From positions 4,743,778-4,807,777 of the forward strand of contig CP070751.1 of assembly GCA_020348445.1 (NCBI GenBank): a stretch of 64,000 bases of DNA, written 5' to 3'. The stretch is from Thermoplasmata archaeon (GTDB lineage: Archaea; Thermoplasmatota; Thermoplasmata; GCA-020350865). Below are positions 34 through 46,265 of this stretch, in pieces. The position numbers and the translations under genes are program-made. The notes under the pieces were generated by a model, which ran no database searches, was not told where the DNA came from, and saw only the letters and a list, made by a program, of their open reading frames with translations. The first letter of the stretch is position 1; the number at the start of each line of letters is the position of its first letter.

Positions 34-34
34 A

Positions 35-191
35 AATGATGTCCATACGACGTAGCTTAGCTGGCTAGTGGAGACCGAAGGTTTCCACGAAAGACCGCTG
101 AGCTACAGTGGCATATGTATTTGATGTGAGTAGCTTAGCCGGTGCAGAGGGGCTCGCAATGGCACCTCCAAACCACTAAGCTACAGTGGCA
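35..191 (-). repeat. Two tRNA-sized (78-79 nt) units that repeat the first ~18 nt of the adjacent tRNA and then fold into a long hairpin instead of a cloverleaf
   Basis: The minus-strand unit starts are at 112 and 190 (the real tRNA starts at 33). All three begin UGCCACUGUAGCU(C/U)AG(C/U)GG. In unit 2, tRNA nt 7-18 (plus 95-106) pair with plus 52-64 around an inner stem GUGGA/UCCAC. In unit 3, plus 176-184 pairs with 130-138. There is no T arm and no 3' acceptor strand (no GCCACTG on the plus strand nearby). Confidence 0.6.
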
Positions 192-426
192 TCGAGCTTA
201 CAGCATGAAATACCACTGAGCTTAAAAGGGTTTTGTGAAAAATATGAGGTGTTTTTGGCTTTTATAATCCAATTCAATCGATACCCTGATTTTGCCGACG
301 TGATAAGAGATGAGCATATTAAAGAGATTAGAAAAAATCTGATTTTCATCAATATAACTGCTCTCATCTTTCTTACCATCTTTATTAGGATTAACCACGC
401 CCTTAATAAAAAGTTGTATCGGTAAT

Positions 427-40050: not shown

Positions 40051-40365
40051 GGAGGCACTGGGGTGTTCGAGCTTAAGATATCAGCATATTGTAACATAAC
40101 TCGAACATAAGCCATTTTGCGGGACCCGAGGCTTAAGATTTGATTATATTTCAATTATAAGCGAGGGATAAGCCCTTATGTGGGATGTTCGAGATTAAGA
40201 AATCAGCGTATTGTAACATAACTCGAACATAAGCCATTTTGCGGGACCCGAGGATTAAGATTCAATTATCATTTAAACATAACCGAGGGGCAAGCCCTTT
40301 TGCGGGTGTTCGAGCTTAAGCATCAAGTGATGTATAATTATAACTCGAATACAAAGTGCCCCCAC
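40051..40365. repeat. 2.5 copies of a 122-bp tandem repeat built from two related 61-nt half-units (T1, T2), flanked by tRNA-Trp 3'-end-like sequence
   Basis: TGTTCGAG starts at 40064, 40186 and 40307. CCCGAGG starts at 40125 and 40247. T1 forms a hairpin GTTCGAG-N29-CTCGAAC. T1 copies a and b differ at only a few positions. Confidence 0.7.
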
Positions 40366-45856: not shown

Positions 45857-45917
45857 GTGTTCAAGTTATGATTATACATCAATTTCGTCTTAAGCTTGAA
45901 CACAAACGACGGTCCAC
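45857..45917. repeat. Palindromic T-loop-like element (GTGTTCAAG-N29-CTTGAACAC) plus an inverted copy of the tRNA-Ala 3' acceptor end
   Basis: The 9-bp arms lie at 45857-45865 and 45895-45903. CGGTCCAC at 45910-45917 is the reverse complement of GTGGACCG at 45942-45949 (the tRNA-Ala 3' end). The element is ~80 percent identical by eye to the reverse complement of repeat copy T1c at 40308-40350. Confidence 0.65.
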
Positions 45918-45942: not shown

Positions 45943-46032
45943 TGGACCGGAGGGGATTTGAACCCCTGGCCTCCACCAATTTGGCCATCAAAGGATGCCA
46001 AGGTGGCGATCTTCCAACTGATCTACCGGCCC
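45943..46032 (-). tRNA. tRNA-Ala (anticodon GGC) with a 17-nt intron
   Basis: The sequence is GGGCCGG UA GAUC AGUUGGAA GAUC G CCACC UU GGC A [UCCUUUGAUGGCCAAAU] U GGUGG AGGCC AGGGG UUCAAAU CCCCU CCGGUCC A. The G3-U70 pair, the Ala identity element, is present. The intron is ~45979-45995. Confidence 0.85.
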
Positions 46033-46179
46033 GATTGCGATTGTATTCAAATTGTAGGGCCGGTAGGTATAGTGGGGGCGAAGCCACCACGAATATCTAC
46101 CGGCCCGTATTTAATTGATGTCCCATTTGAGGGACGGTAGGGCGAGTGGAGACTTGTTCTCCACGGGGTCTACCGGCCC
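46033..46179 (-). repeat. Two 73-74-nt units, each starting with the first 11 nt of tRNA-Ala and folding into a ~50-nt two-tier hairpin
   Basis: GGGCCGGUAGA starts (minus strand) at 46032 (the real tRNA), 46106 and 46179. Unit B has outer arms at 46097-46106 and 46057-66 (10/10 bp) and an inner stem GUGGUGG/CCCCCAC. Unit C has outer arms at 46170-79 and 46131-40 (9/10 bp) and an inner stem GUGGAGA/UCUCCAC (7/7 bp). Confidence 0.7.
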
Positions 46180-46265
46180 TTATTAAATTTCAATTGGGAA
46201 TCCTGAATTTATGAGGATATGTTAATTTCGCATAAATATATTATCCTAAATACAGAAGGGGAGCC

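Follow-up and report, generated by a model that had tools for sequence, protein, structure and literature searches.

Repeated units that carry the end of a neighboring tRNA gene are known from bacteria. In the tyrT operon of Escherichia coli, the repeats each end with the 3′ end of tRNA-Tyr and yield a processed RNA, the rtT RNA; these 178-bp repeats and the rtT RNA were reportedly described by Egan & Landy in 1978 and by Bosl & Kersten in 1991. Here we analyzed a stretch of 64,000 nucleotides from a Thermoplasmata archaeon (GenBank assembly GCA_020348445.1, contig CP070751.1, positions 4,743,778 to 4,807,777 of the forward strand), called the window in the following, in which the gene for tRNA-Ala(GGC) is preceded by two tandem units, B and C, each consisting of a predicted hairpin whose outer stem copies the start of this tRNA. 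As in the tyrT operon, tandem units lie beside a tRNA gene and each contains terminal nucleotides of the tRNA (~19 nt in the tyrT repeats). The tyrT repeats differ in being bacterial, in occurring on the 3′ side only, and in having no inverted copy, no hairpin formed from a tRNA end, and no 5′ counterpart; they are co-transcribed and cut by tRNA-processing enzymes, a feature that the present units would share.

Other described systems that come close are tandem inversion duplications caused by template switching, such as origin-dependent inverted-repeat amplification (ODIRA) and quasi-palindromes. Replication template switches give inverted triplications (PMC4689423), the switching of templates between short inverted repeats is documented to homogenize the arms and to invert the spacer (PMC8604942), and highly transcribed DNA stimulates quasi-palindrome mutations (PMC3820800). 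Shared features are the direct-inverted-direct order, a hairpin loop at the junction, identical arms, inversion between the arms, and the stimulation in highly transcribed DNA (PMC4689423, PMC8604942, PMC3820800). Known template-switch cases are usually large, sporadic, and unstable, whereas here the arms measure 10 to 22 nt and are confined to tRNA gene termini and the units are tandem, have a fixed period of ~73 nt, and are conserved across genera, including their unpaired bases. A literature search found no description of such tRNA-flanking units, and in Rfam only RF00005, representing the real tRNAs, scored above threshold, with nothing credible on the units even at E ≤ 10. The units are members of an apparently undescribed family of tRNA-flanking palindromes that is part of a wider system in Thermoplasmatota.

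The tRNA-Ala locus of the window contains the following features.

45943..46032, minus strand: tRNA-Ala(GGC) gene (Rfam RF00005, 57.2 bits)
46033..46056, minus strand: 24-nt linker between unit B and the tRNA, TACAATTTGAATACAATCGCAATC, G-poor and predicted to be unpaired, the proximal part of the leader
46057..46106 (read 46106->46057), minus strand: unit B hairpin, B-type, 50 nt
46107..46130, minus strand: 24-nt linker between units C and B, TCAAATGGGACATCAATTAAATAC, of the 'TCAAAT...ATAC' type common to the related loci L241 and L242
46131..46179 (read 46179->46131), minus strand: unit C hairpin, C-type, 49 nt
46231..46244, minus strand: candidate TATA-like element ATAATATATTTATG, ~52-65 nt upstream of unit C

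The tRNA-Ala(GGC) gene, in whose sequence the pair G3:U70 can be read, is missed by default ARAGORN without introns; with introns allowed, a 17-nt intron was found at position 38 (i(38,17), ~45979-45995). Unit B has the layout GGGCCGGTAG-ATATTC-GTGGTGG-CTTCG-CCCCCAC-TATAC-CTACCGGCCC, and unit C the layout GGGCCGGTAG-ACCCC-GTGGAGA-ACAAG-TCTCCAC-TCGCC-CTACCGTCCC. In the case of unit B, the 5′ arm equals nt 1-12 of tRNA-Ala and the 3′ arm is the perfect complement of nt 1-10; in the case of unit C, the 5′ arm equals nt 1-11 and the 3′ arm (the last 10 nt, CTACCGTCCC) has a single mismatch, opposite C4. The B-type inner hairpin with its flanks reads UAUUC-GUGGUGGCUUCGCCCCCAC-UAUAC in RNA letters. 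An earlier note on this DNA had described two units of 73-74 nt that start at 46106 and 46179 next to the tRNA start at 46032, and its strings match the minus-strand sequence exactly, the periods being 73 and 74 nt. Its statement that the outer stem copies the tRNA start is correct for tRNA-Ala, with the difference that the identity is longer than the 10 nt given, spanning 12 nt for unit B and 11 nt for unit C. Five matches to GGGCCGGTAG (≤1 mismatch, both strands) are present in the window compared to a chance expectation of 1.25, and all of them lie within 46023-46179. The inner stems of the GTGG...CCAC form, which the note had pointed out, occur in the 64 kb only in units B and C and in one unit of a second array at 34-190 (shuffle mean, 0.7). 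The predicted fold of unit B has an energy of -31.9 kcal/mol (z -6.0) and that of unit C one of -25.3 kcal/mol (z -4.7), with none of 200 shuffles being as good in either case, and a covariance model of the units, R1, scored 72.9 bits for unit B and 76.8 bits for unit C. A reading of the units as tRNAs or tRNA pseudogenes was rejected: neither Rfam nor ARAGORN calls them, and the 3′ arm pairs with nt 8-12 and places a C opposite G3, which shows that it is an inverted copy of the tRNA 5′ strand. Readings as C/D RNAs, as introns with bulge-helix-bulge motifs, or as repeats resembling clustered regularly interspaced short palindromic repeats (CRISPR) were likewise discarded, as there are no boxes and no bulge-helix-bulge and the arms are true inverted copies.

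The purF gene of the window lies 1.4 kb upstream of the array, and close homologues of PurF (75-87% identity) are encoded in metagenome-assembled genomes labelled Thermoplasmata or Methanomassiliicoccales, including two closed chromosomes. We compared the seven syntenic loci that reach tRNA-Ala (L241, L242, L243, L245, L247, L248, and L249), and all seven carry one to three homologous units between the upstream gene and tRNA-Ala: one in L241 and L243, three in L242, L245, and L247, and one each in L248 and L249, two independent assemblies that are identical, compared to two in the window. On an eighth contig, L148, a tRNA-Ala(CGC) gene is accompanied by at least two units of the same family. 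As independent syntenic assemblies, including the two closed genomes, carry homologous units, assembly stutter, which had been named as a possible cause, is excluded, and the recurrence of one to three homologous units at the syntenic tRNA-Ala of related genomes bears out the view that a process or a function rather than chance is responsible. The tandem array at tRNA-Ala is thus real and neither an assembly artifact nor a chance event. Short-read contigs of relatives (L244, L245, L247, L249) often end before, within, or after the tRNA-flanking arrays, as expected for repeats, which apparently break assemblies. When metagenomes were scanned with the D-arm sequence of the tRNA, ~115 tRNA-Ala loci were obtained, only four of which have upstream copies of the tRNA head (L148, L220, L166, and L223); L220, L166, and L223 represent a more distant lineage, in which the tRNA starts with GGGCCAGTAG. 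Among 160 tRNAs, a copy of the first 11 nt was found upstream in six and downstream in one.

Altogether 21 5′ units were compiled, and all of them have the order direct-inverted-direct (a - a′ - a, the last being the tRNA itself): a direct copy of the first 11-22 nt of the tRNA is followed by a short terminal loop, the inverted copy, and a linker of ~24 nt. Full-length units have a period of 70-75 nt, and two short units of L223 measure 37 and 44 nt. In alignment A2, comprising 16 units, columns 1-12 pair with columns 39-50 to form the outer helix, which is followed by an internal loop of 4 + 3 nt, an inner helix GTGGNNN/NNNCCAC of 7 bp with a 5-nt loop, and, after the hairpin, the unpaired linker. 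RNAalifold independently recovered this two-tier fold. Paired cells amounted to 85.3% compared to 80.1% after shuffling, a value equaled by none of 500 shuffles, and to 40-54% in slid registers; seven pairs showed changes on both sides (22 cells), again unmatched in 500 shuffles. The inner stem covaries freely (AGA/TCT, AAG/CTT, CAG/CTG, AGG/CCT), and the position opposite C4 is mismatched in 13 of the 16 units, with a variable partner. Outside the arms, the B-type core of the window unit (win_B) is 96% identical to that of L245_u145 over 26 nt and 85% identical to that of L148_u146, and the C-type core (win_C) is 81% identical to those of L241_u74 and L247_u73, with compensatory changes in the inner stem. 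PurF identity among the unit-bearing genomes is only 77-87%, and the rest of the intergenic DNA cannot be aligned beyond the TATA-like motif. A search with the covariance model of the units detected no further copy in the window and none in ~770 kb of other Thermoplasmatota loci beyond the tRNA-Ala arrays. A linker type, CACTCGCTTCGCTCGTTCAC with variants, predicted to be unpaired and containing an internal TCGCT repeat, is kept from the GGGCCAGTAG lineage to the clade of the window (L148_u146, L243_u73, L245_u216, L247_u216, L220_u72, and L220_u142).

The lineage-specific variants of the tRNA reappear in the units. In L242 and L248 the tRNA starts with GGGCCGATAG, and A7 is found in every unit; two of the three L242 units have the matching T in the 3′ arm, and the 3′ arm is disrupted at this position in the third L242 unit and in the L248 unit. 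In L247 the tRNA starts with GGGCTGGTAG, and two of its units contain the corresponding T5-A pair. The 3′ arms of L243 and L247_u145 fit the complement of the tRNA head better than their own 5′ arms, which carry C->T changes, and the 3′ arm of L247_u145 matches the complement of the first 10 nt of the tRNA exactly. Hence the earlier proposal that each set copies its own tRNA extends to lineage variants such as A7 in L242 and L248 and T5 in L247, and the units evolve in concert with the local tRNA on both arms. In L242, which comes from the closed genome CP070672.1, the tRNA-Ala intron and 3′ half (L242 12946-13045) are given as a run of N, so that the 3′ strand of the acceptor stem cannot be read.

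The pairing of the arms is informative with respect to the strand that was copied. Where the tRNA has G3:U70, the 5′ units have a C opposite G3 and the 3′ units described below an A opposite U70; such exact Watson-Crick arms despite G3:U70 indicate copies of one DNA strand and not remnants of the other acceptor strand. G.U mismatches were not in excess over A.C mismatches in the 5′ units (12 versus 14), and the antisense strand folds as well as or better than the sense strand in 15 of 21 5′ units and 19 of 33 3′ units, the latter containing 42 G.U pairs in sense and 65 in antisense orientation. The hairpins carry no strand-specific RNA signature.

Units of mirror-image design are present downstream of tRNA genes.

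45857..45917, minus strand: degenerate 3′ unit downstream of tRNA-Ala, with a module matching units of L245, L247, and L248
40391-40605, minus strand: tRNA-Trp(CCA) gene with a 142-nt intron (orthologue, L248 8890-9103)
40051..40365, minus strand: tRNA-Trp 3′ array with five hairpin modules of the GTTCGAG...CTTAAG...CTCGAAC family
L248 9125-9195, L248 6770-7330, L245 6880-6973, L241 11950-12110, and L243 8140-8290: 3′ units in relatives
L123, L125, L216, L225, L234, and ~20 others from the D-arm scan: GGGCGTG-type tRNA-Ala loci with 3′ units

In relatives, 3′ units follow the genes for tRNA-Ala, tRNA-Arg, and tRNA-Trp. They start ~24 nt past the tRNA and consist of an inverted copy of the tRNA 3′ end, an inner hairpin GTTCGAG...CTTAAG...CTCGAAC, and a direct copy of 11-19 nt that extends from the T-loop or T-stem to the discriminator base, giving the order b (tRNA) - b′ - b. 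The order is therefore shared on either side of the tRNA, namely, tRNA end, ~20-30 nt, inverted copy, inner hairpin, and direct copy, and at both ends of the gene it is the inverted copy that lies nearest to the tRNA, ~20-30 nt away. In the tRNA-Trp array of the window, the inverted copy GTGGGGGCACT, five modules, and the direct copy CCCAGTGCCTCC follow one another, and its orthologue at L248 9125-9195 has a single unit. The tRNA-Trp(CCA) gene itself was missed by default ARAGORN and by Rfam at the gathering threshold. A C/D-box sRNA is expected in archaeal tRNA-Trp introns, and the intron gave a weak match to such an RNA (sR3, 14.7 bits). In the degenerate unit downstream of tRNA-Ala, the inverted copy GTGGACCGTCG and the inner module GTGTTCAAG-CTTAAGAC...CTTGAACAC are recognizable and the direct copy is largely lost. 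The interior of the 3′ module (TTAT ... GTCTTAAG) is inverted in the window (45857-45903) and L247 relative to L245 (6893-6939) and L248 (6798-6844), which indicates a DNA inversion between short inverted arms. In all loci collected, the last 12 nt of the tRNA recur no more than 500 nt downstream in 28 of 171 cases, compared to a single tRNA with such a copy upstream, which served as a control. In marine metagenomes, tRNA-Ala genes of the GGGCGTG type have one to three downstream units with a period of ~88 nt, many of them ending with ...GTCCACCA, and their hairpins end with CTCGGCACGTCCA(CCA), which is the tRNA's own 3′ end; from the marine sources, we take the hosts to be marine group II. 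In the clade of the window, the 3′ units lie beyond runs of T5-T7, which are typical archaeal terminators, so that the same architecture exists where co-transcription with the tRNA is unlikely.

The second array of 5′ units belongs to a different tRNA.

34..190, minus strand: second array, two units of 78-79 nt upstream of another tRNA, which is cut by the window start (nt 1-33)
191-223, minus strand: possible third, decayed unit AAGCTCAGTGGTATTTCATGCTGTAAGCT, whose fold is no better than those of shuffles (z -0.25)

Both units of this array start with GCCACTGTAGCT, and one of the inner hairpins reads GTGGAAACC-TTCG-GTCTCCAC. The hairpin starts at nt 7 of the tRNA, and the first 6 nt (GCCACU) are unpaired. 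A rule according to which the outer stem equals the first 10-18 nt of the adjacent tRNA, as suggested before, does not hold here, and since nt 1-6 lie outside the helix, pairing of the acceptor-stem strand is not a general property of the units. Relatives of the second array were sought via the neighboring acylphosphatase gene, whose synteny with the tRNA is not kept in L250-L254; in relatives, this gene is mostly located on contigs of 1-2 kb.

Among the matches listed in a contig scan with the pattern GGGCCGGTAGN{15,45}CTACCGGCCC, we also encountered a GC-rich palindrome of Streptomyces and Lentzea. This palindrome, GGGCCGGTAG-N30-CTACCGGCCC with a fixed length of 50 nt, is present in more than 100 genomes of Streptomyces, Lentzea, and other actinomycetes (L001-L120, e.g., L001 1317-1366); it has no Rfam match in L001 and is unrelated to the archaeal units. 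The single archaeal match to the pattern among those listed, L038, is likewise an unrelated hairpin, with no tRNA beside it.

The explanation that we favor, while giving it slightly less than an even chance, is that the units are palindromic duplications of tRNA gene ends that originated at the DNA level, are homogenized with the tRNA, and are carried in the leader of the pre-tRNA. A replication template switch (snap-back) at a highly transcribed tRNA gene would have created the first direct-inverted-direct structure, unequal recombination between the direct copies would then allow the tandem array to grow or shrink between one and three units, and gene conversion with the tRNA and between the arms would make both arms track the current tRNA sequence. 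The leader transcript would fold as two stable hairpins and be discarded upon RNase P cleavage at position +1 of the tRNA, and a mirror-image process at tRNA 3′ ends would give rise to the downstream units. The direct-inverted-direct order is an outcome expected of such a template switch, as are a leader or trailer duplicated with the direct copy, arms kept alike, and an inverted interior (PMC4689423, PMC8604942, PMC3820800). The exact Watson-Crick arms, the lack of strand asymmetry, the differing copy numbers among relatives, the evolution in concert with the tRNA, and the 3′ units beyond terminators also speak for this explanation. Several traces are consistent with an origin from the tRNA gene. 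L220_u72 retains nt 1-16 of the tRNA exactly and 19 of the first 22 nt overall, and in the 3′ half of L148_u73, 16 of 22 positions agree with tRNA nt 1-22 in reverse complement. The inner stem of L148_u73, GTGGAAG/CTTCCAC, resembles the D-loop sequence GTTGGAAG, from which, to judge by the sequence, the inner stem GTGG.../...CCAC in general may descend; the D-loop match was significant in a shuffle test for L148_u73 and L247_u73 and is visible by eye in a third unit, L220_u72. The unit-less locus L135, of the lineage of L166 and L223, has a single leader that is similar to both linkers of these two loci, and the same promoter is located upstream of the unit in L166 and L223 and upstream of the tRNA in L135, which suggests that the leader was duplicated together with the tRNA head. 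The trailers of L248 also resemble one another.

With respect to transcription, the TATA-like element at 46231..46244 is, by its sequence, a candidate promoter for the whole array and tRNA-Ala, and in the window, L241, L243, and L247, the first unit is preceded at a distance of ~52-66 nt by the motif (A/T)TATTTAT. In L243, no promoter-like sequence separates the unit and the tRNA, and certain linkers lack AT-rich elements altogether. The position of the array between the TATA-like element and tRNA-Ala suggests that it is transcribed within the pre-tRNA leader. The alternative of a promoter inside each linker was rejected, as linkers such as GCTCACTCGCTCTGCTCGTTCAC have no TATA-like element and the AT-rich stretches are too near to +1.

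Several observations weigh against replication by-products as the whole explanation. The D-loop match was not significant for the other 14 units tested, and the linkers are not palindromic, in contrast to what a symmetric junction would lead one to expect. The cores, including unpaired bases of the internal loop, are conserved far beyond the expectation for a neutral by-product, the 96% identity of the win_B and L245_u145 cores (26 nt) being accompanied by a PurF identity of only ~77%, and neither the arms nor the linkers are kept as well as the hairpin core. Two different tRNAs have B-like inner hairpins whose flanks agree (TTC-GTGG...TTCG...CCAC-TA), and one family of inner 3′ modules serves tRNA-Ala, tRNA-Arg, and tRNA-Trp; inner modules common to different tRNAs are not predicted by a purely local snap-back origin. 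Finally, the sense strand contains one run of at least four T compared to seven of at least four A, and the linkers are poor in G (12% G versus 24% C), a T-run avoidance and base bias that faintly hint at a constraint on the transcript. Because neither the core conservation nor the modules common to different tRNAs are explained by snap-back, explanations by RNA function and by mobile elements stay alive.

The hairpins might be selected, functional parts of the tRNA-Ala primary transcript, which we consider unlikely but worth serious attention. They could act as a tRNA-like pseudo-substrate or processing module, as a protective terminal hairpin, as a platform for proteins, or by sequestering the antisense arm from the tRNA 5′ end. 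As a pseudo-substrate, the 10-12-bp basal helix would present RNase P with the authentic 5′ strand and leader context, and 3′ processing enzymes would encounter the authentic 3′ strand in the 3′ units, including CCA in the marine-group loci. A basal helix of the kind expected in a minihelix substrate of RNase P or tRNase Z is seen at tRNA-Ala (10-12 bp from +1) and in the marine-group 3′ units ending with ACCA; it is absent from the array at 34-190, where nt 1-6 of the tRNA lie outside the helix and acceptor-stem mimicry is therefore not general. That the direct copy lies on the side of the processing enzyme, as the 5′ strand in the 5′ units and as the 3′ strand plus CCA in the 3′ units, is in line with such a role, as are the location of the array between a conserved TATA-like element and the tRNA and the unit of L243, which, with no promoter-like sequence in between, would have to be transcribed. 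The two-tier hairpin with its covariation (85.3% versus 80.1%, seven pairs changed on both sides) and its recovery by RNAalifold, the strong conservation of unpaired core nucleotides, the avoidance of T-runs in the sense strand together with the G-poor linkers, and the precedent of the E. coli tyrT repeats and rtT RNA also speak for a functional RNA. However, G.U pairs show no excess over A.C, for 5′ and 3′ units alike the antisense strand equals or exceeds the sense strand in folding stability, the inner 3′ module occurs in either orientation, and the 3′ units of this clade sit behind oligo-T terminators. Moreover, RNase P needs no identity to the tRNA sequence, so that function alone leaves the concerted evolution unexplained. 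Mimicry of identity elements for alanyl-tRNA synthetase was rejected, as G3.U is formed only in an alternative register and the base opposite position 4 is variable. A more specific RNA reading, that the units are H/ACA-like guide RNAs whose internal loop serves as a pseudouridylation pocket, is hardly credible. Archaeal H/ACA sRNAs share with the units a single hairpin with lower stem, internal loop, and upper stem. In unit B, the lower stem comprises 10 bp, the internal loop has 6+5 nt, and U-ACA stands directly past the stem, a loose resemblance to which the earlier note had called attention. This resemblance did not withstand comparison, as the ACA is not conserved in B-type orthologues and there is no Rfam match; U-ACA follows unit B only, and the equivalent sequences are TCAAAT after unit C, TTCAAAT after L245_u145, and ATTCAC after L148_u146. 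In the 16 units, a regular helix of 7 bp capped by a 5-nt loop makes up the upper stem, and, as already noted earlier for the window, there is no K-turn or K-loop, nor is there a tandem G.A. Unlike the lower stem of an H/ACA sRNA, that of the units copies the neighboring tRNA and changes in step with it, a behavior for which an H/ACA RNA has no use. The hairpins are also strand-symmetric. With regard to a possible target of the pocket, the internal-loop sequences differ between B-type and C-type units, and the window harbors no rRNA.

Alternatively, the ends of tRNA genes might be the target of the units, which would then be miniature mobile elements or folded-hairpin recombination sites, a possibility that we regard as quite improbable. 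The stem would then reproduce the duplex of the tRNA terminus, the inner hairpin would be bound by a recombinase acting in trans (an HUH enzyme of the IS200/IS605 or REP/RAYT kind or a tyrosine recombinase as with integron attC or CTX-phage attP), and arrays would result from repeated insertion beside each regenerated copy of the target. Such sites resemble known ones in part. Repetitive extragenic palindromic sequences and bacterial interspersed mosaic elements (REP/BIME) and palindrome-associated elements derived from IS200/IS605 are also short, imperfect intergenic palindromes that are often clustered and strand-independent and can form hairpins in transcripts, but REPs are dispersed genome-wide with one consensus, whereas the present units occur only beside tRNAs and have arms that are locus-specific tRNA copies, and there is no gene for a REP-associated tyrosine transposase (RAYT) or TnpA among the 10 open reading frames of the window that were scanned. 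With attC and the CTX attP, the units share a two-tier hairpin with an unpaired spacer, tolerance of mismatches, a stem equal to the target duplex, and a tandem position by the primary site; they differ in having no cassettes, phage genomes, or identified integrase and in having a tRNA end as target. In favor of mobility, a single description (target, ~24 nt, complement of the target, hairpin, copy of the target) fits both sides of the tRNA, the families of inner hairpins are specific for the side and common to different tRNAs whereas the outer arms correspond to the tRNA of the locus, the hairpins are strand-symmetric, the copy number differs among relatives, the cores are highly similar across genera and the linkers are not, and integration in archaea is known to target tRNA genes, the 5′ halves among them (PMC8371274). 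Against it, none of the 10 scanned open reading frames encodes a transposase or integrase, all being housekeeping genes in a neighborhood of conserved housekeeping synteny; no copies away from tRNAs were seen in the 64-kb window, and the dispersal expected for miniature inverted-repeat transposable elements (MITEs) or REPs was not found, the modules lying only beside tRNAs in these 64 kb and only the tRNA-Ala arrays being detected in the ~770 kb of other Thermoplasmatota loci. Viral contigs and phage and plasmid records contained no matches when searched for the D-arm of the tRNA, for the inner hairpins, or for the arrays, apparent hits being unrelated GC-rich terminator-like hairpins. In addition, a 'guide' of 10-14 nt would have to be remade for each new tRNA, the B-type and C-type units seem to have been passed on vertically at syntenic loci, and the unit-free tRNA-Arg gene of the window keeps a trailer matching the tRNA-proximal trailer of L248, which argues against insertion directly at the tRNA end. 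We find it very improbable that viruses or plasmids with tyrosine integrases left the units behind as scars, in which the direct copies would be attL/attR cores that outlasted the loss of the element. Direct repeats of tRNA 5′ or 3′ segments are a hallmark of such integration; pTN3-like integrases use a tRNA's 5′ half, and others the region from the T-loop to the 3′ end (PMC8371274), and the copied 3′ segments of the units do span the T-loop or T-stem to the 3′ end. As in att remnants, direct repeats of tRNA segments flank the gene and the tRNA is intact, but here no element or integrase lies between the repeats, which are much shorter, apparently conserved vertically at one locus, and combined with an inverted copy and a conserved hairpin (PMC8371274). 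The repeats are only ~62 nt apart without element genes, and the direct copies measure no more than 11-19 nt. This model predicts neither the inverted copy nor the conserved hairpin, and the syntenic locus has retained the units in genomes that share only 77-87% PurF identity.

The pattern, with 28 of 171 tRNAs having a downstream copy of their own 3′ end, seems to be unannotated. If the units are replication by-products, as we favor, they would preserve a clean, natural trace of the template switching that occurs at highly transcribed genes and would show flanking palindromes evolving in concert with their tRNA, and they would be a practical cause of contig breaks next to tRNAs in metagenomes. 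It is conceivable, though doubtful, that tRNA genes of Thermoplasmatota are flanked by an unrecognized class of terminus-mimicking hairpins with a dedicated mechanism, either mobile or recombination hairpins guided by tRNA ends or processed hairpin RNAs linked to tRNAs. In the case of processed tRNA-linked RNAs, the units would control the maturation or stability of tRNA transcripts, and in the case of mobile or recombination hairpins, base complementarity to the tRNA terminus would be the targeting principle. Functional or mobile units would represent a new kind of element that recognizes tRNA gene ends by sequence mimicry, and would bear on archaeal pre-tRNA processing and on tRNA genes as preferred recombination targets.

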